Assembly: GCA_016208645.1 (NCBI GenBank) | Contig: JACQXP010000106.1 | Location: 1-43,879, forward strand | Reading direction: 5' to 3' | DNA from: Candidatus Methylomirabilota bacterium | Lineage (GTDB): Bacteria > Methylomirabilota > Methylomirabilia > Methylomirabilales > 2-02-FULL-66-22 | DNA length: 43,879 nucleotides | Shown: piece by piece, positions 4,546 to 21,863 of the stretch | How positions within the stretch are numbered: the first letter of the stretch is position 1 | How the letters are laid out: each line of letters starts with the position of its first letter | The notes under the pieces: model-generated | Seen by the model: only the letters and a program-made list of their open reading frames with translations | What the model was told of the DNA's origin: nothing | Database searches by the model: none | Translations under genes and position numbers: made by a program

Positions 4546-6078
4546 ATGCGCCTGGACCAGCTCCTCTCGGGCTGGGCCGGGGCAGAGGTGACCGGTCCCA
4601 CCGCCGTCGAGATCACCGGCGTAGGCCACGATTCGCGGACGGTCGGCCCGGGGTCCCTGTTCGTGTGCATCCGGGGATTCCGGCAGGACGGTCACGCCTA
4701 CATCGCGGACGCCCGGGCCCGGGGCGCCGCGGCCGTCATGGTCGAGCAGGACCCCGCGGCGCTCCGCATCCCGGCGGGGATGACGGTGATCCGGGTGGGG
4801 AACACCCGCCTGGGCCTGGCCGCCGCGGCCGGCAAGTTCTTTGAGAACCCCAGTGCCTCCCTCCGCCTGATCGGCGTCACCGGGACCAACGGAAAGACCA
4901 CGACCGCCTATCTCGTGGAGGCGATCCTGGCGGCCGCGGGGCACACCGCCGGACTGCTCGGCACCATCGAGTACCGGTGCGGGGCGGTGACCTTCCCCGG
5001 AGAGCGGACCACGCCGGAATCGAGCGACCTGCAATCGCTGCTGGCCCGGATGCGCGATCTGCATGCCTGGGGGGCCGTCATGGAGGTCTCGTCCCACTCG
5101 CTGGCGCTCTCCCGGGTGGACGGGTGCGAGTTCGACGTGGGGATCTTCACCAATCTGACCCAGGACCACCTGGACTTCCACGGGACCATGGAGGCGTATG
5201 CCGAGGCCAAGGCCCGGCTGTTCCGGATGCTGGGGACGGACCGGCGGAAGCCGGGCGAGGCCGCGGCCGTGCTGAACGCCGACGATCCCCGGACGCCGCT
5301 CATGGCCCAGGCCACCCGGGCCCGCGTGATCCGCTATGGGATCGCGGCCGAGGCGGACCTCCGCGCGCGGGAGATGTCGCTGAGCCTGGCCGGGATCCGG
5401 GCGACTGTCACGTCGCCCTGGGGGGCCATGGAGATGGCCTCTCCCCTCGTCGGGCAGTACAACGTCGCCAACTGCCTGGGGGCCGCGGCCGCGGCCCTCC
5501 ACCTTGGCGTGGCCCCTGACCAGGTGATAACGGGGATCGCCAACCTTCGCGCCGTGCCGGGCCGCTTCGAGAAGGTGGAGGCGGGGCAGCCCTTCGGGGT
5601 CGTCGTGGACTATGCCCACACGCCGGATGCGCTGGAGCGGGTCCTCCAGACCGCCCGGGAGTTTGCGCGGGGCCGGGTCATCGCGGTCTTCGGCTGCGGC
5701 GGGGACCGGGACCGGGGCAAGCGCCCCCTGATGGGCGAGGCGGCGGCCCGCCTGGCGGACTTCGTGGTGGCGACCTCGGACAATCCGCGGAGCGAGGACC
5801 CGCTGGCCATCCTGGCGGAGATCGAGGCCGGAATCAAAAAGGCGTACGGCGGCTCCGACCGGCATGTTACAATTCCTGATCGCCGCGAGGCCCTGGGGGC
5901 CGCCCTGGCCCGGGCGCGGGCGGGCGATCTCGTGGTGATTGCGGGCAAGGGGCACGAGACCTACCAGGTTCTCCGAGACCGCACGATCCCCTTCGACGAT
6001 CGGGTGGTGGCGAAAGAGGCGTTGGCGACCCTGGGGTACGCCGGGCAGGGGCCCGGGGTGGTTTCCGGGGGCCGCTGA
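4546..6078 (+). CDS. murE: UDP-MurNAc-L-Ala-D-Glu--2,6-diaminopimelate ligase MurE
   Basis: GVTGTNGKTTT P-loop and a DNPRSEDP motif (DAP-type). Position after ftsI. Confidence 0.95.
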   Translation: MRLDQLLSGWAGAEVTGPTAVEITGVGHDSRTVGPGSLFVCIRGFRQDGHAYIADARARGAAAVMVEQDPAALRIPAGMTVIRVGNTRLGLAAAAGKFFENPSASLRLIGVTGTNGKTTTAYLVEAILAAAGHTAGLLGTIEYRCGAVTFPGERTTPESSDLQSLLARMRDLHAWGAVMEVSSHSLALSRVDGCEFDVGIFTNLTQDHLDFHGTMEAYAEAKARLFRMLGTDRRKPGEAAAVLNADDPRTPLMAQATRARVIRYGIAAEADLRAREMSLSLAGIRATVTSPWGAMEMASPLVGQYNVANCLGAAAAALHLGVAPDQVITGIANLRAVPGRFEKVEAGQPFGVVVDYAHTPDALERVLQTAREFARGRVIAVFGCGGDRDRGKRPLMGEAAARLADFVVATSDNPRSEDPLAILAEIEAGIKKAYGGSDRHVTIPDRREALGAALARARAGDLVVIAGKGHETYQVLRDRTIPFDDRVVAKEALATLGYAGQGPGVVSGGR

Positions 6079-6090
6079 TGGAGTCTCTCC

Positions 6091-6861
6091 GTGTTGGCAC
6101 GAATCAACGGGCTGGACACCTACTTCAGCGTGGAGGGCCGGGGCGAACCCGTGGTCCTGCTCCACGGGTGGGGGGCCTCCAGCCAGAGCTTTGGCGGCCT
6201 CACGGCGGCCCTGGCGGAGGCCTTCCGCGTCCTGGCCGTGGACCTTCCCGGCTTCGGGTGGAGCCAGGCCCCGCCGGTCGCCTGGGGAATCGCGGACTAT
6301 GCGGGGCACGTCCTGCGGCTGCTCCAGGAGGCCGGGGTCGGCCGGGCGGCCCTCCTCGGCCACTCCTTCGGGGGACGGATCGCCATCGCGCTGGCGGCCA
6401 GGCAGCCGGCGCGGGTCTCCCGGCTGGTCCTGGTGGCCAGCGCCGGGATCCGGCCGCGGCGGCGCGCCGGCTACTATGCCCGCGTGGCCGCGGCCAAGCT
6501 GGCGAGGAGGTTTTTCTCCCTGCCCGGCTGGGGGGCCACCGGCGAGCGGATCATCGCGAGGGTGTCCGGGCGGCTCGGCTCCCGGGATTACCGCAGGGCG
6601 GGGCCGATGCGGCCCACCCTGGTGAAGGTGGGGAACGAGGATCTCACGCCCCTCTTGCCGGCGATCCAGGCGCCCACGCTGATCCTGTGGGGGGACCAGG
6701 ACCAGGAGGTGCCGAGGAGCGCGATGGAGACCGTGGCCGCCGGGATCCCGCGATCGCGCCTGGTGGTGTTCGGCGGGGCCGGTCATTTTCCCTTCCTGGA
6801 CGTGCCGGAGAAGTTCTGCGGGATGGTGAAAGACTTCTTGCAGGTGGGAGGAATGGCGTGA
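6091..6861 (+). CDS. alpha/beta-fold hydrolase
   Basis: HGWG oxyanion motif, GHSFGG nucleophile elbow, and C-terminal GAGHFPFLD (His of the triad). GTG 6091. Its stop overlaps the murF start (GTGA). Confidence 0.85.
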   Translation: MLARINGLDTYFSVEGRGEPVVLLHGWGASSQSFGGLTAALAEAFRVLAVDLPGFGWSQAPPVAWGIADYAGHVLRLLQEAGVGRAALLGHSFGGRIAIALAARQPARVSRLVLVASAGIRPRRRAGYYARVAAAKLARRFFSLPGWGATGERIIARVSGRLGSRDYRRAGPMRPTLVKVGNEDLTPLLPAIQAPTLILWGDQDQEVPRSAMETVAAGIPRSRLVVFGGAGHFPFLDVPEKFCGMVKDFLQVGGMA

Positions 6862-8534
6862 CCGCCTCGCCGATGCGCTGGGCGAGGGACGCCGTCGGCT
6901 GGGCGGCCCGGCTCCTGCTGCCGTACGCGGTGGTCGTCGCGGCGCGCCACCTGGATTGCGTCTATATCCTGCAACTGGAGCGGTACAAGCCCGACCGGTA
7001 CGCCCGCTGGCTGGGGCTGCACCGGCGGGCGGCCCTGCCGGGCCTGGAGATCGGCCTGCAGATCCTGACGGTGGCTCTGGCACTCGTCCTGGGCCAGGTC
7101 GGGATCCACTGGCTGGCCGCCTACGGCGTGTGGCTCGCCACCGGGCACGTCATCCTGGCGCGCCGCCGGTCGCTCCAGGTGAGCCAGCGCCTCCAGTACA
7201 CGCCGAGGGCGATCCGCGTCCTGCTGGCGGCCTTCGGTATCGGCGCGCTGCTGGTGGGCGGCCTCCTTGCGCTCGTCGGGCACCTCCCGGCGCCGGGTGG
7301 CCTGCTTCCCCGCTGGATCCTGGGGGGCATCGGTGGCCTGGCCCTGGCGGGGATCCTGGCGCCCCTCGCCGTCTGGGCCGCGGCGGCCGCGCTGAGCCCG
7401 GTGGAGCGCGGGATCGCACGAACGTTCCTGGTCGAAGCGGAGCGCCGGATGCGCGCCTACCCGGGCCGGGTCATCGGCATCACCGGCAGCTACGGGAAGA
7501 CCACGACCAAGTTCATCGCGGCCGATCTTCTGGCCTCGCGCTACCGGGTCCTCAAGACGCCCGATGGCGTGAACACCACCATGGGGATCACGCGGGTGAT
7601 CCGGGAGGACCTCCGCGACGAGCACGAGCTGTTCGTGGTGGAGGTGGCCGCCTACGGGCCCGGGGAGATCCGCGAGGTCTGCGACATCCTGCGGCCCCGG
7701 CTGGGGATTCTCACAGCCGTGGGGGTGCAGCACCTGGAGCGGTTCGGGACCGAGGCGGCCATCGCCGAGGCGAAGTACGAGCTGCTGGCGGCGCTGCCGG
7801 CGGACGGCACGGCCGTGGTGAACGCCGACGATCCGGTGTGCCTGGCGCTGGCGGCGCGGGCCCGGTCGGACGGCAAGCGGGTGCTGCTGTACGGGATGGG
7901 GGAGGCGCCGCGGGACCTGGCGGTGCGGGCCACCGAGGTGCACAGCAGCGCCCGGGGCACCAGTTTTCGCGTCGTGACGGGCGACGGCGAGGCGGTTCCT
8001 TTCCAGACCCGGCTGCTGGGACGCTGGAACCTCTCCAACATCCTGGCCGCCATCGCGGGGGCGCGGGAACTCGGCGTGCCGTTCCCGGCGCTGCGCGAGG
8101 CCGTGGCAGGGCTCGCCCCCCCGCCCAAGCGGCTGGAGGTCCGGGAGGAGGGCGGCATCGTCAAGATCCTGGACGTGGCCAACGCCAACCCCCGGGGGGC
8201 GCAGATGGCCCTGGAGGTGCTCGCCCAGTTTCCGGGCGGAGCGCGGATCCTCATCACGCCGGGCATGGTCGAGCTGGGCCCCATCGAGGCGGAGGAGAAT
8301 CGCCGCTTCGGCCAGGCGGCCGCGGCGGTGTGCGATCACGTGGTCCTGGTCGGGCCGGAGCAGACGCGCCCCATCCGGGACGGCCTCCTCCAGCAGGGCT
8401 TCCCCGCGGATCGGATCCTGACCGCCCGGAACGCCGACGAGGTGGCGGAACGCCTGGCCGCGATCGTGCGACCGGGAGACATCCTGCTGTACGAGAACCG
8501 CTTGCCCGACACCTACCTGGAGGTCGGGACGTGA
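6858..8534 (+). CDS. murF: UDP-MurNAc-tripeptide--D-Ala-D-Ala ligase MurF with an N-terminal polytopic membrane region
   Basis: GITGSYGKTTTK P-loop and PGMVELG (MurF-type DMLELG-like) motif. The first ~190 aa form 4-5 hydrophobic helices instead of the usual soluble domain 1. GTG 6858 (alternative ATG 6873). The 818-aa ORF-track version starting at 6078 overlaps the hydrolase and is rejected. Confidence 0.8.
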   Translation: MTASPMRWARDAVGWAARLLLPYAVVVAARHLDCVYILQLERYKPDRYARWLGLHRRAALPGLEIGLQILTVALALVLGQVGIHWLAAYGVWLATGHVILARRRSLQVSQRLQYTPRAIRVLLAAFGIGALLVGGLLALVGHLPAPGGLLPRWILGGIGGLALAGILAPLAVWAAAAALSPVERGIARTFLVEAERRMRAYPGRVIGITGSYGKTTTKFIAADLLASRYRVLKTPDGVNTTMGITRVIREDLRDEHELFVVEVAAYGPGEIREVCDILRPRLGILTAVGVQHLERFGTEAAIAEAKYELLAALPADGTAVVNADDPVCLALAARARSDGKRVLLYGMGEAPRDLAVRATEVHSSARGTSFRVVTGDGEAVPFQTRLLGRWNLSNILAAIAGARELGVPFPALREAVAGLAPPPKRLEVREEGGIVKILDVANANPRGAQMALEVLAQFPGGARILITPGMVELGPIEAEENRRFGQAAAAVCDHVVLVGPEQTRPIRDGLLQQGFPADRILTARNADEVAERLAAIVRPGDILLYENRLPDTYLEVGT

Positions 8535-8541
8535 GACTGCC

Positions 8542-9801
8542 ATGAAGCGCGTCGGCCTCATCTTCGGCAGCCGAACAGTGGAGCACGAGATCTCCGTGAC
8601 CACCGCCAGCAAGGTGTACGAGGTCCTGCGCCAGGTGCAGGCCGACTACGAGCCGGTGCTGCTCTACATCAACAAGAGCGGGGCGTGGCTCTGCGGGAAG
8701 GCCGTCTCGCGCCTGCTCACGGTCGAGGCCGAGGGCCGGACCTGCGAGGATCTGCCGCGCCGGAAGAGCTTGCAGCAGTCCTTCAAGCAGGAGCTGGAGC
8801 GCCTGGAACGCGGGACGGGATCGGGGGAGGTGGAGCAGCTCTTCCTGCCCCCGGATCCCTCCCTCGGCGGCCTCTGCGGCAATCCCGCCCGGGCAGGATG
8901 GTTCCGCCGGCAGCTCCAGGCGCGCCTGGATATCGCCTTCCCCGTGGTCCACGGCACCCACGGCGAGGACGGGACGCTCCAGGGGCTCTTCGAGCTGGCC
9001 GACCTGCCCTATGTGGGCCCGGGCGTGGCGGCATCGGCCGCGGGCATGGACAAGATCCTGTCCAAGCTGCTCTTCCGCGGGGCCGGGCTGCCGACGGTGG
9101 AGGCGACGTGGTTCACGCGGCGGCAATGGCTCACGGACGAGGCGGCCGTCTGCGCGAGGGTGGAGTCCGCCCTCGCCTACCCGGTGGTGGTCAAGCCGGC
9201 CGTGGCGGGCAGCAGCGTGGGCATCGGGAGGGCGACCAGCCGACCGGAGCTCTCGCAGGTCGTGCGCCAGGCCATGCAGTTCAGCGCGCGGCTCCTGGTG
9301 GAGCGGGCGGTGGAGGACCGGCTGGAGGTCCAGTGTGCCGTCCTGGGGAATCACGACCTCACGGTCTCCGAGTGCGAGGAGCTCTTGGGGACGGGCAGGA
9401 TCGTCAGCTTCGAGGACAAGTATCTCCGGCGGGCGGAGCGGCCGGAGGAGGCGGACCTGGCCCCGAGCCATATCCCCGCCCGCATCCCGGAGGATCTGGC
9501 GCGGCAGGTGAAGGAGTTGGCGGCCGGCGCCTTCCGGACACTGGATGCCCGGGGGATCTCGCGGGTGGATTTCCTGGTGGATCGGCCCACCCTGCGGCCG
9601 TACGTCAATGAGGTCAACACGCTGCCCGGATCCCTCTGCCTGCGCCTGTGGGAGCGGAGCGTCGTCACGCCGGTCGAGCTCATCCGCCGGCTGCTCGCGC
9701 TGGCGGTGGAGGCCCACGCGGAGAAGGCCGCCACGCGCTTCGAGTCGGAAGAGGGCCGGGCCGTGGTGGACAAGAAGCACCTGATGAGTCCCAGGAAATA
9801 G
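8542..9801 (+). CDS. ddl: D-alanine--D-alanine ligase (long form with internal insertion)
   Basis: FGSRTVEHEISV, HGTHGEDGTLQGLFEL, ATP-grasp core, EVNTLPG. About 419 aa, longer than usual. Confidence 0.9.
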   Translation: MKRVGLIFGSRTVEHEISVTTASKVYEVLRQVQADYEPVLLYINKSGAWLCGKAVSRLLTVEAEGRTCEDLPRRKSLQQSFKQELERLERGTGSGEVEQLFLPPDPSLGGLCGNPARAGWFRRQLQARLDIAFPVVHGTHGEDGTLQGLFELADLPYVGPGVAASAAGMDKILSKLLFRGAGLPTVEATWFTRRQWLTDEAAVCARVESALAYPVVVKPAVAGSSVGIGRATSRPELSQVVRQAMQFSARLLVERAVEDRLEVQCAVLGNHDLTVSECEELLGTGRIVSFEDKYLRRAERPEEADLAPSHIPARIPEDLARQVKELAAGAFRTLDARGISRVDFLVDRPTLRPYVNEVNTLPGSLCLRLWERSVVTPVELIRRLLALAVEAHAEKAATRFESEEGRAVVDKKHLMSPRK

Positions 9802-9884
9802 TTCGACGTTCAATGTGCAATGTTCAACGTTGAACCTCGAACCTCGAACCTGGAACCTTGAACGTCGAACCTCGAACGTTGAGC
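9801..9884. repeat. 7-nt-period array, inverted layout: GTTCNNN x4 then NNNGAAC x8
   Basis: Reads gttcgac gttcaat gtgcaat gttcaac | gttgaac ctcgaac ctcgaac ctggaac cttgaac gtcgaac ctcgaac gttgagc. It starts on the last nt of the ddl stop. A GGCCTCGCCGAGGCC palindrome follows (9885-9899). Confidence 0.9.
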
Positions 9885-9923
9885 GGCCTCGCCGAGGCCT
9901 GAGAGGATTCGAAAGAACGAACC

Positions 9924-11006
9924 ATGCTGTATCACCTGCTGGTCCCGCTGGCCAAGACGTTCGGGCCGTTCAACGTCTTCCGGTATGTCACGTTCCGGAC
10001 GGCCGGGGCCTTCCTCACGGCCCTGGTCGTGGCCATGATCCTGGGGCGGCCGATCATCCAGAAGCTCTCGACCATGCGCGCCCGGCAGGTGATCCGGGAC
10101 GATGGGCCCCAGACCCACCTGAAGAAGGCCGGCACGCCCACCATGGGCGGCGTCCTGATCCTGCTGGCGGTGGCCTCGGCCACGCTGCTCTGGGCGCAGC
10201 TCACCAACCGGTTCATCTGGCTGGCCCTGCTCAGCATGCTGGCCATGGGGGCGGTGGGTTTCGTGGACGACTACCTGAAGCTCAAGCGGGCCACCAGCAC
10301 GGGCCTCCGCCCGCGGCAGAAGTTCTTCTGGCAGGTCCTGATCGGCCTTCTGGTGGGGGGCTACCTGTACTTGTTTCCCACCGACCAGTTCACGACCAAG
10401 CTGGCGATTCCGTTCCTGAAGCGCTGGCTGCCGGAGCTGGGCCTCTGGTACATCCCCTTCGCCATGGTGGTCCTGGTGGGCTGTTCGAATGCAGTCAACC
10501 TGACGGATGGCCTGGACGGCCTGGCCATCGTCCCCACGCTGATGGCGGCGGCGACTTTCACCCTGTTCGCCTACGTGGCGGGCCACGCCACCATCGCCCG
10601 CTACCTCCAGGTGATCTTCGTGAAGGGGTCGAGTGAGCTGCCCATCTTCGCCGCCGCGCTGGTGGGGGCCAGCCTGGGCTTCCTCTGGTTCAACGCGCAC
10701 CCGGCCCAGGTGTTCATGGGGGACACGGGATCTTTGGCGCTGGGCGGGGCGCTGGCCACCGTCGCCCTGGTGACCAAGAACGAGCTGATCCTGGTGGTGG
10801 CCGGGGGCTGCTTCGTGGTGGAGGCCCTGTCGGTGATCGTCCAGGTGTTCTGGTTCCGGCGGACCGGCCGGCGGATCTTCCGCATGGCGCCCATCCACCA
10901 TCATTACGAGCTGAACGGTCTTCCGGAACCCAAGATCATCGTCCGGTTCTGGATCGTGTCCTTCGTGTTGCAGGTCATCGCGCTGACGACGCTCAAACTG
11001 AGGTGA
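9924..11006 (+). CDS. mraY: phospho-N-acetylmuramoyl-pentapeptide transferase MraY
   Basis: MLYHLL...FNVFRYVTFR...GTPTMGG...NAVNLTDGLDGLA...HHHYEL are canonical MraY motifs. Confidence 0.96.
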   Translation: MLYHLLVPLAKTFGPFNVFRYVTFRTAGAFLTALVVAMILGRPIIQKLSTMRARQVIRDDGPQTHLKKAGTPTMGGVLILLAVASATLLWAQLTNRFIWLALLSMLAMGAVGFVDDYLKLKRATSTGLRPRQKFFWQVLIGLLVGGYLYLFPTDQFTTKLAIPFLKRWLPELGLWYIPFAMVVLVGCSNAVNLTDGLDGLAIVPTLMAAATFTLFAYVAGHATIARYLQVIFVKGSSELPIFAAALVGASLGFLWFNAHPAQVFMGDTGSLALGGALATVALVTKNELILVVAGGCFVVEALSVIVQVFWFRRTGRRIFRMAPIHHHYELNGLPEPKIIVRFWIVSFVLQVIALTTLKLR

Positions 11007-11069
11007 GAGCGGAGAGCCGCGAGCCGAGAGGGGAGAAGGCAGAAAGCAGAAGGCAGAAGGCAGACGGAG
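11007..11069. repeat. 7-nt-period array, 9 units (GAGCCGA / GAAGGCA type)
   Basis: Reads gagcgga gagccgc gagccga gagggga gaaggca gaaagca gaaggca gaaggca gacggag. It starts 1 nt after the mraY stop and runs into MurD-homologous sequence. Confidence 0.9.
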
Positions 11070-11151
11070 CGGCTTTGCCGCCTGCAAGGTCCTGGCGGAG
11101 CGCGGGGCCGCGGTCCTGGCCACCGATCGGAACCCGGCCGAGCAGCTCCGC

Positions 11152-12399
11152 GTGGACCTGGCGGAACTCGCGCGGCGCGGCGTCCGCCTGGAGACCGGCG
11201 GGCACAGGTCGGAGAGCTTCCTGGAGACGGATCTCCTGGTCATCAGCCCGAGCGTGGACCTCCGGTTTCCCCTCCTGGAGCAGGCCGTCTCCCGGGGGAT
11301 CCCGGTGTGGAGCGAGGTGGAGCTGGCCTATCGCCTCACGTCGGCCCGCTTCCTGGCGGTCACGGGGACGAACGGGAAAAGCACGACGACGAGCCTCCTG
11401 GGCGCCATGGTCGAGGGCGCGGGGTTTCCCTCTGTGGTGGCGGGCAACATCGGCACGGCGCTGTGCGAGGTGGTGCCGGGTCTCACCCCCGCCCACTGGG
11501 TGGTGGCCGAGCTGTCCAGCTTTCAGCTCGAGACGATCGTCACGTTCCGCCCCCACGTGGCCGTGCTGCTGAACCTGGCGCCGGACCACCTGGACCGCTA
11601 TGCCGCCGCGGCGGACTACTACGCGGCCAAGGCCCGGATCTTCACCCACCAGGCATCCGAGGATGTTGCCGTCCTGAATGCGGATGATCCCCTGGTCCTG
11701 GAATACGCGCAGGGGATCCGATCCCGGGTGCTGATGTTCAGCCGGTCCCGGACGATGGGGGACGGGGCCTTCCTGCGGGGGGACCGCCTGGCCGTGCGCC
11801 GGCAGGGACGGACCGAACCGGTCTGCGCGACGTCCGCGATCCGGATCCAGGGCGTCCACAACCTCGAGAACGCGCTGGCGGCCGCGGCCGCGGCCGCCGC
11901 CATCGGGGTCCCGGCCGGGGCCATGGCGGCCGCCCTGGCGAGCTTCCCGGGCCTGCCGCACCGGCTGGAGCTGGTGGCGGAGGTGGACGGGGTCCGGTAC
12001 GTCAACGACTCCAAGGGGACCAACGTGGGGGCGGTCCTCAAGTCCCTGGAGGGATACGCGGGCGGGGTGATCCTCATCGCCGGCGGCAAGGACAAGGGCG
12101 GGGACTTCGCGCCGCTCAGGCCGCTGGTGGAGACCCGGGTGAAGACGCTGATCCTGATCGGCCAGGCCCGGGGGAAGATCCGCGCGCAGCTCCACGGCGC
12201 CTGTCCCATGGAGGAGGCGCCGTCGCTCGAGGCGGCGGTCGCGCACGCCACGGGCCTCGCAGCACCGGGGGACACGGTGCTCCTCTCCCCGGCCTGCGCC
12301 AGCTTCGACATGTTCCGGGATTTCGAGGACCGGGGCGAGGCGTTCCGGCGCGCGGTGCGGGAGGTGCAGTCTCGGAGGGATGCCGTTGGACGTCGCTGA
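11152..12399 (+). CDS. murD: UDP-MurNAc-L-Ala--D-Glu ligase MurD (5' end unresolved)
   Basis: AVTGTNGKSTTT P-loop and Mur ligase C-terminal domain. GTG 11152 is the first canonical start, but in-frame MurD-like sequence (GRRSGFAACKVLAERGAAVLATDRNP) continues upstream to about 11059 with no ATG/GTG/TTG. Confidence 0.85.
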   Translation: MDLAELARRGVRLETGGHRSESFLETDLLVISPSVDLRFPLLEQAVSRGIPVWSEVELAYRLTSARFLAVTGTNGKSTTTSLLGAMVEGAGFPSVVAGNIGTALCEVVPGLTPAHWVVAELSSFQLETIVTFRPHVAVLLNLAPDHLDRYAAAADYYAAKARIFTHQASEDVAVLNADDPLVLEYAQGIRSRVLMFSRSRTMGDGAFLRGDRLAVRRQGRTEPVCATSAIRIQGVHNLENALAAAAAAAAIGVPAGAMAAALASFPGLPHRLELVAEVDGVRYVNDSKGTNVGAVLKSLEGYAGGVILIAGGKDKGGDFAPLRPLVETRVKTLILIGQARGKIRAQLHGACPMEEAPSLEAAVAHATGLAAPGDTVLLSPACASFDMFRDFEDRGEAFRRAVREVQSRRDAVGRR

Positions 12400-13597
12400 G
12401 CGGTGGGCCGGTCCGGCCGCAAGCCCGGCCGGCGGACGGGAGGCCGGCGGGCCCGCCGGTCCCACCCGGAGCTGGAGGGCGCTCCTGCCGAGCCGGACAG
12501 CCGGGACCGACCGGGCCCCGTCCGACCGGTTCTTGCTGGTGGTGACCCTCGTCCTGGTCGGGGTGGGGATCGTGATGATCTACAGCGCCAGCGCGATCCG
12601 CGCCCAGGAGCGCTTCGGCGATCCCACTTTTTTCCTGAAGAAGCAGCTCGTCTATGCCTTCCTGGGCCTGCTGGCCATGGCGTGGGCCGTGGGGCGGGAC
12701 CTGAAGACGTTCCAGCGGCTGACCCCGATCCTGTTCCTGGGGAGCCTCCTGCTGCTGCTCCTGGTGCTGGTGCCCCACATCGGGATCCGGATCAACGGCG
12801 CCCGCCGGTGGATCCGCTTCTTCGGTCTCTCCTTCCAGCCGGCCGAACTCGGGAAGCTGGCGGTGGTCCTGTTCCTGGCCAGCTACTTTGCGAGGCGACA
12901 GGACCGCCTGGGCAGCTTCCTGGATGGATTCCTCCCGCCGCTTCTGATGACCGGGCTGGTCGCGGGACTGATCATCATCCAACCGAACTTCGGGACGGCC
13001 GGCATCCTGCTCTTCGTGGCGGGCCTGCTGTTCTTCGTCGGCGGGGCGCGGATCGGCCATCTCCTCGCCACGGCCGCCCTGGCCCTCCCCGTCCTGCTGG
13101 TGCTGGTCCTCCAATCGTCCCACGGGCGGACGCGGCTGCTGGCGCTGGTGGATCCCGCCCGGGTCTCCGCCAAGGCGACGTACCAGTTGGCCCAGTCCTT
13201 CTACGCGCTGGGACCCGGGGGGCTTCTGGGACGAGGCCTGGGCGACAGCATGCAGAAGCTCTTCTTCCTGCCGGAGCCGCACACCGACTTCATCTTCGCC
13301 ATCGTGGGCGAGGAGATGGGCTTCGTGGGAGCCATCCTGGTCCTCGTGCTGTATGCGCTGTTCCTCTGGCGCGGGACGCGGGCGGCGCTGCGGGCAGGCG
13401 ATCCGTACGCCAGCTATCTGGCCATGGGGATCACCGGGCTGGTGGTCGGCCAGGCCGCGCTCAACATGGCGGTGGTGAGCGGCCTGCTGCCCACCACGGG
13501 CGTGCCGCTGCCGTTCGTGAGCTTCGGCGGATCGTCGCTCACCCTCACGCTCTTCGGGGTGGGGGTGTTGTTGAATGTCTCGCGGCGCTCCGCGTGA
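12380..13597 (+). CDS. ftsW: peptidoglycan glycosyltransferase FtsW (SEDS family)
   Basis: Polytopic membrane protein with IVMIYSAS, QPAELGKLA, DFIFAIVGEEMGF and PFVSFGGSS. Overlaps the murD end by 20 nt. Confidence 0.9.
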   Translation: MPLDVAERWAGPAASPAGGREAGGPAGPTRSWRALLPSRTAGTDRAPSDRFLLVVTLVLVGVGIVMIYSASAIRAQERFGDPTFFLKKQLVYAFLGLLAMAWAVGRDLKTFQRLTPILFLGSLLLLLLVLVPHIGIRINGARRWIRFFGLSFQPAELGKLAVVLFLASYFARRQDRLGSFLDGFLPPLLMTGLVAGLIIIQPNFGTAGILLFVAGLLFFVGGARIGHLLATAALALPVLLVLVLQSSHGRTRLLALVDPARVSAKATYQLAQSFYALGPGGLLGRGLGDSMQKLFFLPEPHTDFIFAIVGEEMGFVGAILVLVLYALFLWRGTRAALRAGDPYASYLAMGITGLVVGQAALNMAVVSGLLPTTGVPLPFVSFGGSSLTLTLFGVGVLLNVSRRSA

Positions 13598-13607: not shown

Positions 13608-13712
13608 GTGGCGATGGAAAATGGAAAATGAAAAACCGACAACTGACAACGCAAAACCGAAAACGAAACTTGACCGGTTGTCCGTTGTCGGTTGTCAGTT
13701 TTGCATTGGCAG
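13608..13712. repeat. 7-nt-period array, about 15 units, inverted layout
   Basis: Reads gtggcga tggaaaa tggaaaa tgaaaaa ccgacaa ctgacaa cgcaaaa ccgaaaa cgaaact tgaccgg | ttgtccg ttgtcgg ttgtcag ttttgca ttggcag. The right-arm units are reverse complements of the left CNGACAA units. Confidence 0.9.
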
Positions 13713-13727: not shown

Positions 13728-14825
13728 GTGCGGGTCGTGATCACGGGCGGAGGGACGGGCGGCCACCTCTTCCCCGCGCTGGCGGTGCACGGGGCACTGA
13801 TCCGACGGCGCCCGGAGGCAGAGGTCCTCTTCGTGGGGGCGTCGGAGGGGGTCGAGGCCACCATCCTCCCGCGGCTGGGTCACGCCTTTCGTGGCCTTCC
13901 TGTCCACCAGGTCAAAGGGAGGAGATGGCGTGGTCAAATGGCAGCTCTGCTGGCGCTCCCGGCGGTGGTTCGTCAGGCGTCCGGACTTTTGCGGGAGTTT
14001 GGCGCGCAGGCGGTCCTGGGGGTGGGCGGGTATGCCTCTTTTCCGACGGTTCTGGCCGCGCGCCTGAGGCGCATTCCGACGGTGATTCACGAACAGAACG
14101 CGTACCCCGGGCTGGCGAACCGATGGCTCGGCAGGATCGCCTCGGCGGTGGCGGTCTCGTTCGAGGCGGCCGCGGGCTTCTTTCCGGCCGGGCGCGTCAG
14201 CGTGGCGGGGAATCCGGTGCGGCCCGAGATCCGGCCGGGAGATGCCGGGGAGGCGCGCCGGCGACTCGCGCTCTCGCCCGGATCCTTCACGGTCCTGATC
14301 TTCGGGGGAAGCCAGGGGGCCCATCGCGTCAACGCGGCCGCGATCGACGCGCTGTCACGGCTGGCCGCGAGCCGGGGCCGGATCCAGTTCCTGCACGCCA
14401 CGGGGGAGCGTGAGGTGTCCGAGGTGCGGCAGGCATATGAGCAGCACGGGTTCCCGGCGCGGGTGGAACCGTTCTTCCAGGATATGGCCACGGCGTATGC
14501 GGCGGCGGACTTCGTCATCGCCCGGGCGGGCGCCAGCACCATCTTCGAGCTGGCGGCCGTGGGGAAGCCCGCCCTCCTGGTGCCCTACCCCTATGCGGCC
14601 AACGATCACCAGCGGCTGAACGCCGAGGCCATGGTGAAGGCCGGGGCGGCCTGGACCGTGCCGGACCAGTACTGCGACGGCCAGCGCATCGCCGCCACCG
14701 TTGAGGCGGCCCTGGAGAAGCCGGACGTGCTCCGGCGCATGGGAGAGCAGGCCCGGGGTCTGGCGCGGCCCGATGCCGCCGACCGGATCGTGGACTTGTT
14801 GGAGCGGGTCGCTAAGGAAAGCTAA
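13728..14825 (+). CDS. murG: UDP-GlcNAc--MurNAc-pentapeptide GlcNAc transferase MurG
   Basis: [21 protein letters not shown]-terminus. GTG 13728 follows GGAGAGGAGG. The ORF-track TTG 13692 lies inside the repeat array. Confidence 0.93.
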
Positions 14826-14830: not shown

Positions 14831-14862
14831 GTTCGACGGTTCGACAGTTCGGTGGTTCTGGG
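14831..14862. repeat. 8-nt-period array GTTCGNNN x4
   Basis: Reads gttcgacg gttcgaca gttcggtg gttctggg, starting 6 nt after the murG stop. It shares the GTTCGAC core with the 9801 array. Confidence 0.8.
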
Positions 14863-14893
14863 GAGACCCGAACGCATTCAATCCGGGGTGGTC

Positions 14894-16303
14894 ATGTTCA
14901 AGCGGATCCGGCGGATTCACTTCGTGGGCATCGGCGGCGTGGGGATGAGCGGCATCGCCGAGGTCCTGCATAACCTCGGCTACTCGGTCAGCGGCTCCGA
15001 CAGCAAGGAGTCGGAGAACACGCGGCGCCTCACGTCGCTGGGGATCCCGGTGGCCATCGGCCACCGGGCCGAGAACATCGGCGGGGCCGACGTGGTGGTC
15101 CGCTCCTCGGCGGTGGCGCCGGACAACGCGGAGCTGGCGGCGGCACGCCAGCGATTGATCCCCGTGATCCAGCGGGCGGAGATGCTGGCCGAGCTGATGC
15201 GGATGAAGTACGGCGTGGCCGTGGCCGGGACCCACGGGAAGACCACCACCACCTCCATGGTGGCGGCCGTCCTGGCCCGGGGCGGGCTGGATCCCACCAT
15301 CGTCATCGGCGGGCGCCTGAACGCCCTGGGCACCAATGCCAAGCTCGGTCGAGGGGACTTCCTGGTGGCAGAGGCGGACGAGAGCGACGGCTCGTTCCTC
15401 AAGCTGTCACCCACCATCGCGGTGGTGACGACCATTGACGCGGAGCACCTGGATTACTACCGGGACCTGGCGCACATCCAGGACACCTTCGTTGAATTCA
15501 TCAACAAGGTGCCGTTCTACGGCCTGGCGGTCCTGTGCCTGGACCAGGAGAACATCCAGAGCCTGCTGCCCCGGGTGGAAAAGCGGTTCGTCACCTATGG
15601 CCTGCGGAGCCAGGCGGACTTCCTGGCCCAGGACATCTCGTTCAAGGGGATGACCTCGGACTTCCTGGTGGCCTGGAAGCGCCGGCCGCTCGGCCGCCTC
15701 CAGTTGCAGGTGCCGGGGCTCCACAACGTGTACAACGCGCTGGCGGCCACGGCCGTGGGCCTGGATCTCCAGGTCGACTTCGCCGCGATCCAGGACGCCC
15801 TGGGCGAGTTCACGGGCGTCGCGCGGCGCTTCCAGATCCTGGGAGAGCCCAACGGCATCCTGGTGGTGGACGACTACGGCCATCACCCGGCGGAGATCCA
15901 GGCCACGCTGAACGCGGCCAAGACGGGGTTCGGGCGGAACCTCATCGCCGTGTTCCAGCCGCACCGCTACACGAGGACGCAGGCCCTATTGCACGAATTC
16001 GCCACCGCCTTCTACCAGGCGGACCGGCTGTTCGTCACGGAGATCTACCCGGCCGGCGAGCGGCCGATCCCGGGCGTCCATGGGGGACAGATCGCGGACG
16101 GGGTCAAGGAGCACGGCCACAAGAGCGTCACCTACGTCCCGGAGAAGGAGGACCTGGTGGCCGCGGTGGCCGCGGTGGCCCGCCCGGGGGACATCGTCCT
16201 GACCATGGGCGCGGGGGACATCTGGAAGATCGGGGAGGAGATCGTCCGGAAATTGGCCCCCCTCACCTCCGCCTCTCCCCCAGTGGGGGAGAGGAATGGG
16301 TGA
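14894..16303 (+). CDS. murC: UDP-N-acetylmuramate--L-alanine ligase MurC
   Basis: [25 protein letters not shown] and [14 protein letters not shown] 14894 is preferred over the ORF-track 14852, which abuts the repeat. Confidence 0.95.
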
Positions 16304-16308
16304 GGGGG
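16258..16308 (+). other. 51-nt near-perfect stem-loop spanning the murC stop codon
   Basis: Outer stem CCCCCTCACC (16258-16267) pairs with GGTGAGGGGG (16299-16308). Inner stem CCTCTCCCCC (16272-16281) pairs with GGGGGAGAGG (16285-16294). 3-nt loop and a symmetric 4x4 internal loop. Confidence 0.85.
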
Positions 16309-16318: not shown

Positions 16319-17227
16319 ATGATCGCCACGAAGGACCTCGCGGAAGAGCTGCGCGCCACGCTCCGGGGGAACGTGCTGGCGCACGAGCCCATGGTGCGGC
16401 ACACCTCGTTCAAGATCGGAGGGCCGGCCGATCTCTTGGTCATCCCCGAGGATGTGGAGGATCTGAAGGTGGCGATGGCCTTCGCCCGATCCAAGGGGCT
16501 GCCGTCGTGGGTGCTGGGCAGCGGGAGCAACACCCTCGTCCGCGACGGGGGCATCCGGGGGATGGTGGTCCTGCCCAGCGCGTTTCAAGCGCTCGCGCGG
16601 GCGGGCAACGAGGTGACGGCCGGCGCCGGTGTCCGAGTCAGCCGGCTGCTCGCCTTCTGCAGCAAGCAGGGCCTGACCGGATTGGAGATCCTGAGCGGCG
16701 TGCCCGGTACGGTCGGCGGTGCCGTCTGGGGGAACGCCGGCGCGTGGGGCGGAGCGACGGCCGACCACCTGGCTCGCGTACAGGTGGTCACGGACACCGG
16801 AGAGGAACTGACGCTCGAGCGGGAGGCGATCCCCTTCCGCTACCGGTTCTCCGGCCTGCCCAAAGGATCGGTGATCGTCCAGGCGACCTTCGCCCTGGCC
16901 CCGGGGGACCCGGCCGCCATCCGGCAGCGGATCTCCCGGTGGCTGGTCCAGCGGAATGCCACCCAGCCCGTGGAGTTCCGATCGGCGGGCTCCATCTTCA
17001 AGAACCCGCCCCGCGACTTCGCGGGGCGGCTGGTAGAGGCGGCCGGGGTGAAGGGCACCCGGATCGGCGGCGCCATGATCTCCGAGAAACACGGGAACTT
17101 CTTCGTGAACCTGGGAGATGCCCGGGCGGCCGACGTGCTGGCACTGGTGGCGCTGGCCCGGGAGCGGGTTCGCCAAACGGCAGGGATTGATCTGGAGTTG
17201 GAGATTCGGGTCGTCGGCGAGGACTAG
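16319..17227 (+). CDS. murB: UDP-N-acetylenolpyruvoylglucosamine reductase MurB
   Basis: HTSFKIGGPADLL, GSGSNTLV and GSIFKNP motifs. FAD-binding PCMH type. Confidence 0.93.
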   Translation: MIATKDLAEELRATLRGNVLAHEPMVRHTSFKIGGPADLLVIPEDVEDLKVAMAFARSKGLPSWVLGSGSNTLVRDGGIRGMVVLPSAFQALARAGNEVTAGAGVRVSRLLAFCSKQGLTGLEILSGVPGTVGGAVWGNAGAWGGATADHLARVQVVTDTGEELTLEREAIPFRYRFSGLPKGSVIVQATFALAPGDPAAIRQRISRWLVQRNATQPVEFRSAGSIFKNPPRDFAGRLVEAAGVKGTRIGGAMISEKHGNFFVNLGDARAADVLALVALARERVRQTAGIDLELEIRVVGED

Positions 17228-17310
17228 AAACTGGAAGATGGAAACTGGAAACTGGCAGCAGGCAGTTGGTTCTTCAGCATCCAATTTCCAATTTCCAGTT
17301 TCCGATTTCC
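17227..17310. repeat. 7-nt-period array, 12 units, inverted layout (GAAACTG ... AATTTCC)
   Basis: Reads gaaactg gaagatg gaaactg gaaactg gcagcag gcagttg gttcttc agcatcc aatttcc aatttcc agtttcc gatttcc. It starts on the last nt of the murB stop. Confidence 0.9.
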
Positions 17311-17319
17311 GGAGTTGCC

Positions 17320-18144
17320 GTGATTAGAGACTACCACACGCCCCGCTGGCGGGGCGGGCAGGGGAGGCGGGGGCGCGAGCGCTATCCGCGCCTGGCGCGC
17401 CTGCTCAAGATCCTGGGGGTCGTGCTCGTCCTCGCGGGGACCGGCGCCGGCCTCTGGGAAGGGTACCGGGCGGTCCTCCGCCTGCCCTACTTCCGGGTCG
17501 CGGAGATCCAGGTCGAGGGCAACCTCCAGGTGGCGAGCCAGGACATCATCGCCGGCCTGGCCCTGGCCCCGGAGACCAGCATCCTGGAGGTGGATCTCCC
17601 CGCCTTGGCGGGGCGCCTGCTGGAGAACCCTTGGATCAAGGAGGCCTCGGTGGGGCGGCGGCTCCCGCTCTCGCTCACCATCCGCGTCGTGGAGCGGATG
17701 CCGGAGGCGGTCTTCATCGCGGACCGGCGCTACCTGCTGAGCGCCGACGGCGTGATCCTGGCAGAGCTGGCCGAGGACGAGCTGCCCACGCTCCCGACGC
17801 TGCGTGCCGCCAGCCCGCGGCAGGTCACCATCGGCCAGCGAATCCTCACCTCGGAGATGGCCCAGGGCCTGTCGGTCTGGCGTCAGTTCCAGCTCGCCAA
17901 CGCGCTGCAGGAGGAGAAGGCCCACGAGATCGCGATGACGGGGGACGGGAGCTACGTGGTGAACCTGGGACAGCAGATGCCGGTGATCCGGCTGCGGGCC
18001 CAGGACATGGAGGGGCAACTGGGCCGGCTGGGCGCCGCGCTGTCCGCCAGCGGCCAGGCCCTGGAGCGGTTCGGTGACGTGGATCTGCGCTTTCGCGACC
18101 GGGTGATCTTCAAGCTCGCAGCGGGGACGACGGTCCGGCCGTAA
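17320..18144 (+). CDS. ftsQ: cell division protein FtsQ (POTRA domain)
   Basis: Basic N-terminus, TM segment LLKILGVVLVLAGTGAGLW, then POTRA-like FRVAEIQVEGNLQVASQDI. GTG 17320 is preferred. The ORF-track start 17266 lies inside the repeat array. Confidence 0.85.
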   Translation: MIRDYHTPRWRGGQGRRGRERYPRLARLLKILGVVLVLAGTGAGLWEGYRAVLRLPYFRVAEIQVEGNLQVASQDIIAGLALAPETSILEVDLPALAGRLLENPWIKEASVGRRLPLSLTIRVVERMPEAVFIADRRYLLSADGVILAELAEDELPTLPTLRAASPRQVTIGQRILTSEMAQGLSVWRQFQLANALQEEKAHEIAMTGDGSYVVNLGQQMPVIRLRAQDMEGQLGRLGAALSASGQALERFGDVDLRFRDRVIFKLAAGTTVRP

Positions 18145-20776: not shown

Positions 20777-21187
20777 GTGATACCGGTGCCGTCGATTTCA
20801 CCTGAGATCTTCAGGTCGTTCGGAATCCGGCTCGCGTACCTCTTCGGATCGCGGGCAGCGGGACGACCGGCGGAACAGAGCGACGCCGACGTGGCGATCC
20901 TGCTGTGCGAGCCGCACAGCCTGGACGATCTCTGCCGTGCCGTGGCCGACCTCGAGTCGGTGGTCGGCAGGACCCTCGGGTGCGCGGCGCATGTCATCCC
21001 CTTGAATGGCGCATCCGCGTTGCTGCGCTTCGAGGCGATTCGACACGGTCGGGTGCTCTTTGCCGCCGATGGAGCCGAGCGGATCCAGTTCGAGGTTCGG
21101 ACCCTGAGAGAGTACGAAGAGTTCCGCCGACGTCAGGACCTGTACTATCGCGCCATGCTCACCAGGCTCGTCGGGGTGGCCCCGTGA
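20777..21187 (+). CDS. mntA: nucleotidyltransferase-domain antitoxin (MNT/MntA-like)
   Basis: The minimal-NTase motif GS-x9-D-x-D is present in LFGSRAAGRPAEQSDADVAIL. Its stop overlaps the start of a HEPN gene (GTGA). Confidence 0.8.
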   Translation: MIPVPSISPEIFRSFGIRLAYLFGSRAAGRPAEQSDADVAILLCEPHSLDDLCRAVADLESVVGRTLGCAAHVIPLNGASALLRFEAIRHGRVLFAADGAERIQFEVRTLREYEEFRRRQDLYYRAMLTRLVGVAP

Positions 21188-21606
21188 TTGCGGCCACACC
21201 GATACGGGAGCGCCTGCTCGAGATCGAAGCCAATGCTCGGCTGCTGGCGGAACTTCGGGCCACCCCTGTCGAGGCGTTCGTCCGCGAGCCGAAGGTCTAC
21301 AAGCTTGCCGAGCGCTGCTTCCAGGTCGCTATCGAGTGCATGATCGACGTTGCTGACCACCTGATCGCCGAGCGTGGTTGGCCTCGGCCCGAGAGCGGGC
21401 ACGAAGCGCTTCGTACCCTCGGAGCACAAGGGGTACTTCCCCTGAGTTTTGCCGAGCGGATCGCACCCATGGCCGGCCTCAGAAACCTGCTGGTCCACGG
21501 GTATATGGCCATCGACCGGCGGAAGCTTCATAGCCACTTGTCCCGGGTGGAGGATTTCCGCGAGTTCATCCGACACGTCGAGGCGTACCTGGCGGCCTCC
21601 CCCTGA
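21184..21606 (+). CDS. hepT: HEPN-domain toxin (DUF86/HepT-like)
   Basis: R-x4-H HEPN motif in GLRNLLVHGY, about 140 aa, and a 4-nt overlap with the upstream NTase gene. Confidence 0.85.
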   Translation: MIAATPIRERLLEIEANARLLAELRATPVEAFVREPKVYKLAERCFQVAIECMIDVADHLIAERGWPRPESGHEALRTLGAQGVLPLSFAERIAPMAGLRNLLVHGYMAIDRRKLHSHLSRVEDFREFIRHVEAYLAASP

Positions 21607-21863
21607 CGCCTCTCGCCCCCAATCTCTGTTGCCTGCATCTCGATCGTTCGCTCCTCTCTCCCCTTGAGCCCCTCTGCCGCCCGTGATCCTTTGCCAAAAC
21701 ATAGAAGGGAAGTGTGTTTGTTGGTGCAAAAGCAACTCCACGCCAGTTTCTCTGCTCCAGGCCCGACCGGCGCGGCCCCCCGCGATTTACCAAGAGGGAG
21801 GTCACCACTCCCAGATTTGAGTCTATTCGGAGGCAGACGAACATCGCCGGACACTCCTCCGGG

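Follow-up and report, generated by a model that had tools for sequence, protein, structure and literature searches.

Heptanucleotide repeat arrays at the gene junctions of a Methylomirabilota cell-wall operon: candidate STRR/REP-like elements that turn over between relatives

INTRODUCTION

What are the short tandem repeats that fill the junctions between the genes of a bacterial cell-wall operon, and why do they keep to steps of 7 nt? The question is raised by a contig of a Candidatus Methylomirabilota bacterium (JACQXP010000106.1; 43,879 bp, 68% GC), the whole of which we analysed and refer to as the window. Its plus strand carries the dcw cluster of cell-wall and division genes (gene identities by Pfam), and an earlier note, made from the sequence alone, had pointed to arrays of 7-nt units at many gene junctions of the window. 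We find that these arrays are present, that arrays of the same kind lie at orthologous junctions in related genomes, and that between relatives they gain or lose whole units, disappear, or are replaced by other families at the same sites. The reading that we favour, with moderate confidence, is that the arrays are elements akin to the STRR (short tandemly repeated repetitive) repeats of cyanobacteria and the repetitive extragenic palindromic (REP) sequences of enterobacteria; they would be clade-wide, change by unit slippage, disperse between junctions and be co-transcribed as intercistronic hairpins.

RESULTS

Arrays of 7-nt units occupy gene junctions

We measured periodicity with a self-match scan (at least 17 matches in 21 nt), using first-order Markov simulations as the null. 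At lag 7 the scan returned 11 segments, where 0.02 were expected for the whole window and 0.002 for its intergenic DNA, while lags 4, 5, 8 and 10-13 gave zero segments in the window. Nine of the 11 lag-7 segments are non-coding, and the common period and junction placement proposed in the earlier note are borne out. Tandem Repeats Finder (TRF) placed period-7 arrays at 9832-9877, 11005-11064, 13614-13700, 17223-17310, 26040-26103, 27083-27169 and 38335-38367, and period-8 arrays at 14831-14851 and 25222-25261. The arrays are imperfect (74-93% matches) and represent at least six unit families within the window. All arrays named in the earlier note could be recovered by reading the sequence and by TRF, either where it had placed them or a few bases away; the three GAGAGCC-like units that it reported at 23278-23298 are present, but weak, with ~2.5 units. 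To that inventory we add an 8-nt array at 25223-25262, a palindrome at the murC-murB junction (16257-16308) and the loss of the murD start beside the mraY-murD array. The elements of the window are as follows.

9802-9884, + strand: ddl-mraY array; GTTCRAY 5' arm at 9802-9828, then its reverse complement (GTTGAAC/CTCGAAC units) at 9829-9884
9885-9899, + strand: small GC-rich stem-loop, GGCCTCGCCGAGGCC, directly 3' of the 9802 array; a separate 6-bp hairpin
11005-11067, + strand: mraY-murD array; single arm, purine-rich, GAGAGCC-type units grading into CAGAAGG units
13614-13634, + strand: three ATGGAAA-type units at the ftsW-murG junction (TRF)
13635-13706, + strand: ftsW-murG hairpin; ACYGACA arm, loop, GTTGTCN reverse-complement arm
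14831-14874, + strand: murG-murC array; four 8-nt units GTTCGNNN and one reverse-complement unit CCCGAACG (TRF, period 8)
16257-16308, + strand: REP-like palindrome at the murC-murB junction, covering the murC stop codon
17228-17312, + strand: murB-ftsQ hairpin; AAACTGG arm at 17228-17269, reverse-complement arm at 17280-17312
23278-23298, + strand: weak GAGAGCC-like run of ~2.5 units upstream of the radical-SAM gene, below the TRF threshold
25223-25262, + strand: weak 8-nt stretch of the CCGGTTCA type between the radical-SAM stop codon and the PgeF domain (TRF period 8, 75% matches)
26040-26123, + strand: pgeF-msrP array; single arm of GAGAGCC x5, GTGAAGC-type and GAGAGGC units, ending in the ribosome-binding site GGGAGAG
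27080-27171, + strand: msrP-msrQ hairpin; AATGCGG arm at 27080-27115, reverse-complement arm at 27136-27171
38335-38367, + strand: CATTGGT array, 25 nt upstream of the next start codon (TRF)

In a MurG-based scan of species-representative genomes the close relatives are all Candidatus Methylomirabilota metagenome-assembled genomes (MAGs), L001 (82% amino-acid identity), L002 (70%) and L003 (68%), and all others fall below 45%. A metagenome scan added L081 (88%), L087 (82%), L082 (79%), L084, L085, L086 and L088, and a protein search added a 96%-identity cluster of three contigs, L161, L162 and L163, annotated as candidate division NC10 MAGs, which are 99.6-99.8% identical among themselves and ~92-96% identical to the window. 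Genes were mapped in the relatives and orthologous junctions were then read side by side.

The 7-nt enrichment, which the earlier note had suggested checking more widely, is strong in 179 kb of these relatives as well as in the window. Counting TRF arrays of at least three copies, we found 34 arrays of period 7, nine of period 8 and eight of period 6 in the 179 kb of the clade, compared to 52, 16 and 47, respectively, in an outgroup of 149 unrelated dcw loci (2.25 Mb). The density of heptamer arrays in the clade, ~19 per 100 kb, is thus ~8-fold that of the outgroup, in which period 7 is likewise the top tandem period. Six dcw junctions are occupied by arrays.

The placement of the arrays relative to genes is specific. 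An array starts 0-5 nt past the upstream stop codon in six of nine cases, in keeping with what had been claimed of their start points. The ddl-mraY array begins at the ddl stop codon TAG (9799-9801); its unit family is common to the window, L081, L082 and L161, and the adjoining stem-loop is missing at that position in L081 and L161. The mraY-murD array begins within the mraY stop codon (TGA, 11004-11006) and lacks a reverse-complement partner (fold z -1.6); it has ~9 units in the window, ~16 in L161 and ~27, in two modules, in L081. At ftsW-murG, the ATGGAAA-type units are retained in L081, L087, L082 and L001, with one unit left in L161, and L082 and L087 preserve the arms of the hairpin around loops that differ; in the window this hairpin terminates in CAGTTTTGC, immediately 5' of the murG ribosome-binding site. 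Fuller versions of the murG-murC array are found in L084 (4+4 units) and, with loop inserts, in L081 and L161, and a near-identical copy of the murG-murC element stands at murB-ftsQ in L161. The AAACTGG family of the murB-ftsQ junction is also present there in L081 and L082.

The remaining arrays lie outside the dcw junctions. The pgeF-msrP array begins inside pgeF, as had been noted: its first 45 nt are read by the pgeF open reading frame (ORF) as a 15-residue tail, the Pfam domain reaches to residue 251 of 267, and a GTGAAGC unit contains the stop codon TGA. A very similar composite (GAGAGCC, then GTGAAAC/GTGAAGC, then GGAAGGC) is found at mraY-murD in L087. In the two GAGAGCC-type arrays the sense strand is rich in purines and the repeats continue into the ribosome-binding site of the gene that follows; in the window and its relatives, this single-arm family is always found on the sense strand. 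That such arrays are Shine-Dalgarno multimers is a minor possibility; their units hold GAGAG or GAAGG, and rarely GGAG or GGAGG. The 8-nt stretch at 25223 may be an in-frame N-terminal extension of PgeF from the GTG at 25219, judging from the reading frame; L161 likewise has it in frame and at equal length, with a start/stop overlap (ATGA) in the gene call. The CATTGGT array (fold z -1.6) lies 150 nt beyond the tctA stop codon, close to the ~150 nt first estimated. An ORF at 38195-38347 that would place it beside a stop codon was rejected, with a third-position GC content (GC3) of 0.60 compared to 0.85-0.93 in real genes here.

The CATTGGT array is also bracketed by an exact 11-nt direct repeat, GTGATGTCGCA, at 38321-38331 and 38367-38377, the two copies of which can pair mutually via G-U wobbles. 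We considered target-site duplication as a sign of transposition and set it aside: the other arrays have no such direct repeats.

Paired arrays are predicted to form intercistronic hairpins

The four pairs of a forward array and its reverse complement that the earlier note described are all real, and each is predicted to fold as a hairpin in sense-strand RNA. The folding energies, with z-scores relative to dinucleotide shuffles, are -38.9 kcal/mol (z -3.6) for 9802-9884, -43.1 kcal/mol (z -2.95) for 13635-13706, -38.0 kcal/mol (z -4.4) for 17228-17312 and -57.4 kcal/mol (z -3.6) for 27080-27171, the last with 18 consecutive base pairs. The distance from the upstream stop codon to these four stems is 0-4 nt, and that from their ends to the next start codon is 7-25 nt; the murB-ftsQ stem, for example, starts 4 nt past the stop codon TAG and ends 8 nt before a GTG start codon. 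Certain hairpins have additional palindromes nested in their loops.

The arrays are neither intrinsic terminators nor consensus promoters. A consensus promoter scan gave none in the arrays and no promoter hexamers flanking them, and a terminator scan inside the arrays gave just one weak site (13671-13694, tail TCAGTTTTGC). Terminator-like sites in the scan numbered three, compared to 8.8 expected from shuffles, and the spacers that do look promoter- or terminator-like (for instance 29859-30035) have no arrays. Rfam 15 at gathering score gave zero matches in the whole window, a tRNA scan was likewise empty, and no Y1 transposase was found among the 29 window proteins scanned against Pfam. Nor are the arrays CRISPR, as the earlier note had stated; their 7-8-nt units are contiguous, with no spacers.

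Arrays slip, disappear and are exchanged between relatives

Arrays of the same kind occupy orthologous junctions in L081, L082, L087, L001, L084 and L161-L163. The comparison of these genomes shows whole-unit slippage, loss and replacement of arrays, with unit families dispersed between junctions, so that the copy-number variation and the unit turnover that the earlier note had proposed to look for are both seen. Copy number at the strain level was compared on L161-L163 rather than on the window's own strain. Over 15,890 nt, L161 and L163 (genomes 99.6% identical) differ by 58 substitutions and by one indel, which is exactly 7 nt long and removes or adds one unit of the ddl-mraY array. The 3' arm of that array has eight units in the window, six in L081 and 15 in L161; differences in unit count thus arise among lineages ~7% diverged. 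Loss can be complete: the 117-nt ftsW-murG hairpin is gone in L161-L163, where one ATGGAAA unit is kept at the junction, and it is still recognisable in L082 and L087.

Replacement is seen at several junctions. At murB-ftsQ, the window, L081 and L082 have a GGAAACT heptamer hairpin, while L161 and L087 have a GTTCGNNN octamer hairpin; at murC-murB, L081, L082, L001 and L161 have a GGAAAYT heptamer hairpin, while the window and L087 have the REP-like palindrome; and at ddl-mraY, L087 has a CATCAGC/GCTGATG hairpin. At murG-murC, murC-murB and murB-ftsQ, some hairpin is kept in all three lineages ~7% apart, so that, on these alignments, the persistent pattern is that a junction stays occupied by a hairpin while the occupant changes.

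The unit sequences differ between arrays, as had been observed, but they are not independent of one another: a few clade-specific families recur, and none of them is found in the 149 unrelated loci. GAGAGCC stands at mraY-murD, at pgeF-msrP and, in L002, at murB-ftsQ; GGAAACT/ATGGAAA stands at three junctions; and GTTCGAC, as a 7-mer or as the 8-mer GTTCGACN, stands at four, the same core thus occurring at period 7 and at period 8. In L161 the murG-murC and murB-ftsQ elements have common termini, AAGAACGTTCGAC … CCGAACGCTTT. In the more distant relatives L085, L003, L086 and L088 the spacers are for the most part short and plain (that at ddl-mraY measures 4 nt in L085); the long, array-filled spacers are therefore derived. 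The murC-murB array is headed by a GGAAGCT unit, of which the native C-terminal codons of MurC, CGGAAGCTGGAG, look like 1.5 copies; on this resemblance, local seeding of that array from MurC codons is possible.

Translation also runs into the murC-murB array itself: in L081 (12587-12690) and L161 (~7500-7600), its 5' arm is read in frame as a MurC tail of 7-residue repeats (…KLEAGNW KLETGSR KLETGNR…). The stop codon TAG of this tail lies in the hairpin loop, and the called MurC has 502 residues in L161 compared to 483 for the window ORF. In L162 (4747-6581) and L163 (11114-12880), no murC is called between murG and murB despite the 502-residue MurC of L161; the missing call may reflect a frameshift or masked bases near the repeats.

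Heptamer arrays were also seen in five unrelated, low-GC, Clostridia-type dcw loci (L079, L106, L022, L029 and L074), where they sit in the spacers between cistrons and in many cases pair a forward array with its reverse complement, for instance GGAGGTT x6 and then AACCTCY, or GAATAGT … ACTATTC; in L079, two forward/reverse-complement pairs flank a common core of ~60 nt. Array sites in these loci are the following.

L079: 592-664, 7623-7660, 11136-11264, 14473-14650 and 19676-19721
L106: 387-727, 2835-3096 and 4861-4888
L022: 8765-8845
L029: 7421-7633

A GC-rich REP-like palindrome exchanges with the arrays

The palindrome at 16257-16308 (CCCCTCACC…CTCTCCCCC / GGGGGAGAG…GGTGAGGGG; in a second notation, CCCTCACC…CTCTCCCC / GGGGAGAG…GGTGAGGG) has a predicted fold of -47 kcal/mol (z -4.1) and encodes the last ~15 MurC residues in the window. 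A pattern search found it once in the window, compared to 0.01 occurrences expected, and also in L001, L082 and L087, in all three of which it stands at murG-murC. Its copies in relatives are located as follows.

L161: ~5915-5950
L162: ~4780-4860
L082: 7227-7247
L087: 12540-12560
L001: 4073-4091

Contigs L161 and L162 (99.8% identical) differ structurally in one respect only, an extra copy of this palindrome after murG, which suggests that the element is currently mobile. The definition of a REP, an imperfect palindrome of 20-40 nt, fits the sequence at 16257-16308 better than it fits the arrays, which are palindromic and dispersed but have arms that are tandem arrays of variable length. The statement of the earlier note that the arrays are not classic REPs is correct, but incomplete: they behave in a REP-like manner, being swapped with a REP-like palindrome at orthologous junctions.

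Sequence constraint on the junctions

Identity at 4-fold degenerate sites is 85% between the window and L081 and 60-67% between the window and L082 or L087. With gaps excluded, junction identity between the window and L081 is 0.92 at ddl-mraY, 0.97 at ftsW-murG, 0.88 at murG-murC and 0.85 at murB-ftsQ. The ftsW-murG element itself is identical at 118 of 118 positions, and its local flanks are 3-8% diverged. Set against the 15% divergence of 4-fold sites, this identity would indicate very strong purifying selection (P ~5e-9), but that reading was downgraded, as the flanks are just 3-8% diverged and divergence at the other junctions is close to the synonymous rate. The identity is suggestive, but not overwhelming, of some constraint at one junction. 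In comparison with L082 and L087, the arms are recognisable at 68-74% overall identity, with the proviso that repetitive sequence aligns easily. Overall, these comparisons point to weak to moderate constraint on the arrays, with no demonstrated covariation.

Gene context and two disruptive indels

The genes that flank the arrays are listed below.

8542-9801, + strand: ddl
9924-11006, + strand: mraY
ending at 12399, + strand: murD
12380-13597, + strand: ftsW
13728-14825, + strand: murG
ending at 16303, + strand: murC
16319-17227, + strand: murB
~17320-18144, + strand: ftsQ, followed by ftsA and ftsZ
23489-25222: radical-SAM gene
ending at 26085: pgeF
26126-27079: msrP-like gene
27197-27835: msrQ-like gene; beyond it ilvD, an MFS transporter gene, tctCBA and others

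Two further features of this neighbourhood were noted. A gene between murE and murF (6078-6956), an unusual dcw insert, has a counterpart in L163 (2325-3095) that belongs to the alpha/beta-hydrolase family. Between ftsZ and the radical-SAM gene lies a lower-GC toxin-antitoxin island (20777-23211), with an MNT-type nucleotidyltransferase and a HepT ribonuclease on the + strand and DUF6982 and a YafQ/Phd-YefM toxin-antitoxin pair on the - strand; at the same position L161-L163 have just an 84-residue gene and DUF6982.

The window also holds two disruptive indels, because of which its exact copy numbers need care. The first is a truncated murD 5' end.

11068-11151, + strand: murD 5' end, with the array fused straight to codon 19 (…SGFAACKVLAERG) and no in-frame ATG, GTG or TTG before 11152

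The murD of the window is without its start codon and first 18 codons (V/M-xELDLRGKRVTVVGLAR, including part of the GxGxxG loop), which are present upstream of SGFAAC in L081, L082, L087, L085, L002 and L161. The 58 nt that are missing would lie between the heptamer array and AGCGGCTT, at 11067/11068, and the deletion is flanked by CGG; it is either a real deletion at the array edge, a minority variant or an assembly error. The second is a perfect 47-nt tandem duplication inside a gene at 42564-42657, which shifts the reading frame. When one copy is removed, an ORF of 224 residues results (41978-42699) that is 54% identical to a paralogue at 40301-40981, and from its sequence the gene is either a pseudogene or an assembly artefact.

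DISCUSSION

The arrays as intercistronic elements

The reading that we favour holds that arrays of short units, of 7 and less often 8 nt and usually in a forward copy plus its reverse complement, colonised the spacers between co-transcribed genes. Lying within operons, from a stop codon to the next ribosome-binding site, they would be transcribed as part of the polycistronic mRNA. Pairing of the arms would then loop out the 80-120 nt that have been inserted and bring the stop codon and the next start site together, and it may be because this proximity is restored that such inserts are tolerated in essential operons. The long duplex might act as a barrier to 3' exonucleases, as a substrate of RNase III, or both, and so tune the relative stability of neighbouring cistrons in the manner of REP, Correia and STRR elements, with each copy individually dispensable. 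The GAGAGCC-type single-arm arrays that abut ribosome-binding sites may serve as an unstructured leader. Slippage, and not a reader specific to this lineage, is the probable source of the preference for 7 nt, since period 7 is also the commonest in unrelated phyla. A looping or duplex role is suggested by how the stems are placed with respect to stop and start codons, together with the predominance of inverted pairs, by the interchange with the REP-like palindrome, by the lack of arrays in promoter- or terminator-like spacers, and by what has been proposed for STRR (PMC2670836).

Several observations weigh against this reading. Five arrays (11005-11067, 26040-26123, 38335-38367, 25223-25262 and that at 14831, with its one reverse-complement unit) give no significant fold, and the hairpin model leaves single-arm arrays unexplained. 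An alignment of the murB-ftsQ hairpin by RNAalifold, which had only three sequences with repetitive arms, gave compensatory changes at one of 30 pairs, a positive covariation term and several broken pairs. All junctions compared except ftsW-murG show 85-92% identity between the window and L081, about the synonymous rate, and a close relative does entirely without the 117-nt hairpin, which shows that individual copies are dispensable. No transposase is linked to the elements in the window, and flanking direct repeats are found only at the 38335 array. Nearly all genes of the window lie on one strand, so that tests of junction type and of orientation are powerless. Finally, what we say of the transcription of the arrays, of their folding inside the cell and of consequences for the stability or processing of mRNA is inferred.

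Some of these same observations would be expected if the arrays were a neutral by-product, that is, slippage debris combined with template switching at hairpin-prone sites, piling up in non-coding spacers with no function and with hairpins that are not selected. We regard this as unlikely, though as a possibility to be taken seriously. It agrees with the unit indels, copy-number changes, total loss and family replacement among close relatives, with divergence at about the synonymous rate at most junctions, and with the fact that distant relatives manage with spacers of 4-40 nt; that period 7 is the commonest in unrelated phyla too points to a general mutational bias (PMC4679880), and the MurC codons CGGAAGCTGGAG look like a GGAAGCT proto-repeat. 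Simple slippage, however, makes no adjacent reverse-complement array, and most junction elements of the clade have both arms. Occupancy of a junction persists though its occupant changes, a few unit families recur at different junctions, and the ftsW-murG element has 0 changes in 118 nt, none of which a neutral by-product would lead one to expect; moreover, tolerance of every period not divisible by 3 should also have produced periods 4, 5, 10 and 11, and they are absent. An explanation that accounts for the period in another way is that the arrays offer multiple docking sites to a protein each subunit or domain of which would read ~7 nt, on mRNA or on single-stranded DNA. Cold-shock proteins, ribosomal protein S1 or a CsrA-like regulator would be candidates; binding would set translation or stability of the downstream gene, and the hairpin arm would compete. 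Each family indeed has a conserved core with one or two variable positions (GGAAA-NN, GTTCGA-N(N), GAGAGCC), the single-arm purine-rich arrays are confined to the sense strand and lead into the ribosome-binding site, the 7-nt period is preferred across phyla, S1, Csp and CsrA have been proposed as readers of TAACTGA heptamers (PMC4679880), and a binding partner has been proposed for Nostoc heptamers (bioRxiv 10.1101/2022.06.06.494920). We nevertheless find this improbable: one protein is unlikely to read at least six unrelated units in one 44-kb window, the families are freely swapped at the same junction, even for a GC-rich palindrome, no gene for a candidate protein is linked to the arrays in the window, and the occurrence of the same core at periods 7 and 8 argues against a strict 7-nt ruler.

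The earlier note had also pointed out that, as 7 is not a multiple of 3, slippage would shift the reading frame wherever an array touches a coding sequence. This holds at gene ends (the pgeF tail in the window, the murC tail in L081 and L161) but nowhere else; the arrays, being imperfect repeats between housekeeping genes, are not phase-variable loci. That they are contingency loci, in which unit slippage switches flanking genes on and off, we consider very unlikely, even though one-unit variation is seen in nature (L161/L163) and the arrays touch coding sequence at these tails and at the murD 5' end. Imperfect repeats suppress slippage, there is just one unit indel per 58 substitutions, and the arrays do not lie between -35 and -10 elements; their position after stop codons or in dispensable tails means that frame changes would have little effect, and the flanking genes are essential housekeeping genes. 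The class of phase-variable contingency repeats was rejected on these grounds. The thought that the arrays are an artefact of a metagenome-assembled genome draws on the two suspicious indels of the window (the 58-nt loss at the murD start and the 47-nt duplication), which may make exact copy numbers unreliable, and merits almost no credence. In no fewer than eight assemblies, made independently and in different projects (L001, L081, L082, L084, L087, L161, L162 and L163), arrays of the same families stand at the same junctions, and by this comparison an artefactual origin of the arrays is refuted, as the earlier note had asked to see examined. A bolder and quite doubtful proposal takes in the unrelated Clostridia-type dcw operons as well as Methylomirabilota: heptamer-array hairpins would be cross-phylum intercistronic control cassettes, their period read by a conserved single-strand binder with a footprint of ~7 nt (a cold-shock protein or S1), which would load cooperatively on one arm and open the hairpin. 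If that were true, the expression ratio of neighbouring cistrons could be set by, for example, temperature or growth rate, and the unit families would be equivalent solutions to one structural requirement.

Whichever explanation applies, the favoured one included, the genomes form a series (99.6%, ~93% and ~80% identical) that displays unit slip, copy drift, loss, family swap and palindrome exchange at fixed sites in an essential operon. Such a series makes it possible to put the questions of neutral versus functional arrays, and of a slippage ruler versus a protein ruler, to existing metagenomic and metatranscriptomic data. There is a practical side as well: the arrays overlap gene ends (pgeF, murC, murD) and coincide with indels, and will mislead gene callers and assemblers on these MAGs.

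Comparison with known repeat systems

Heptamer repeats have been known in cyanobacteria since 1990. The CATTGGT unit of the 38335 array is what we take to be a cyclic permutation of the STRR2 unit, TTGGTCA, the sequence of which was reportedly given by Mazel in 1990. STRR repeats measure 7 bp and give rise to hairpins between cistrons, for example hupS-hupL; for these intercistronic hairpins transcript stabilisation or translational coupling has been proposed (PMC2670836). They are, as the earlier note had supposed, the closest described analogue, and what defines them is found in the window and its relatives: tandem 7-bp units, several families per genome, location in intergenic or intercistronic spacers and a hairpin-forming arrangement. 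The differences are that the host here is Methylomirabilota and not a heterocystous cyanobacterium, that the DNA has 68% GC and mostly other, clade-specific units, and that 8-nt variants of one core occur here, as does exchange with a GC-rich palindrome at orthologous junctions. As judged from their sequences, the elements are STRR-like but not STRR proper, since taxon and units differ.

The high GC content, which had been regarded as an oddity, is not one. Heptanucleotides are reported to be the commonest class of long simple-sequence repeats in many bacteria, including GC-rich Burkholderia, Xanthomonas and actinobacteria, and polymerase slippage has been proposed as the origin of the preference for heptamers (Mrazek 2007, as cited in PMC4679880 and PMC4692102). 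Like the arrays described here, those repeats are over-represented in intergenic DNA, include some inverted pairs and vary in length between related species (PMC4692102, PMC4679880). The Xanthomonas GGGAATC and Nostoc GGGGATT repeats, in contrast, are dominated by one G-rich, quadruplex-prone unit, whereas here there are many families, mostly with no G-runs, and inverted hairpins are the rule. The TAACTGA repeats of marine Beggiatoaceae, cyanobacteria and Bacteroidetes (MacGregor 2015), for which post-transcriptional roles have been proposed (PMC4679880), resemble our arrays in being direct heptamer repeats a few nt upstream of start codons, also before essential genes, and a unit of the window, CAACTGA/ACTGACA, is one base off TAACTGA. 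They differ in having a single unit, at 2-6 copies in each site with hardly any of them inverted; our arrays represent multiple families, have 4-15 units each and mostly combine both arms.

REP sequences and their composites, the bacterial interspersed mosaic elements (BIME), in enterobacteria, and Correia elements (Neisseria miniature insertion sequences, NEMIS) in Neisseria, are dispersed intra-operon palindromes that are co-transcribed; the hairpins that they form shield the mRNA upstream or are cleaved by RNase III. REPs are tied to the REP-associated tyrosine transposase (RAYT), and Correia elements have terminal inverted repeats and a TA target duplication. The elements described here resemble both in being dispersed, palindromic and intergenic and in varying in presence or absence between strains, and are in addition interchangeable with a REP-like palindrome; they differ in that REP and Correia arms are unique sequence, while the arms here are tandem 7-8-nt units. 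The literature that we searched yielded nothing linking Methylomirabilota, NC10, Methylomirabilis or Rokubacteria with heptamer or tandem repeats, a text search on the STRR units gave unrelated papers only, and heptamers are not treated in a survey of short tandem repeats from 2025 (PMC12699852). This locus extends a long-known class of repeats to a new phylum, GC-rich and uncultured, with heptamer repeats at unusually high density.

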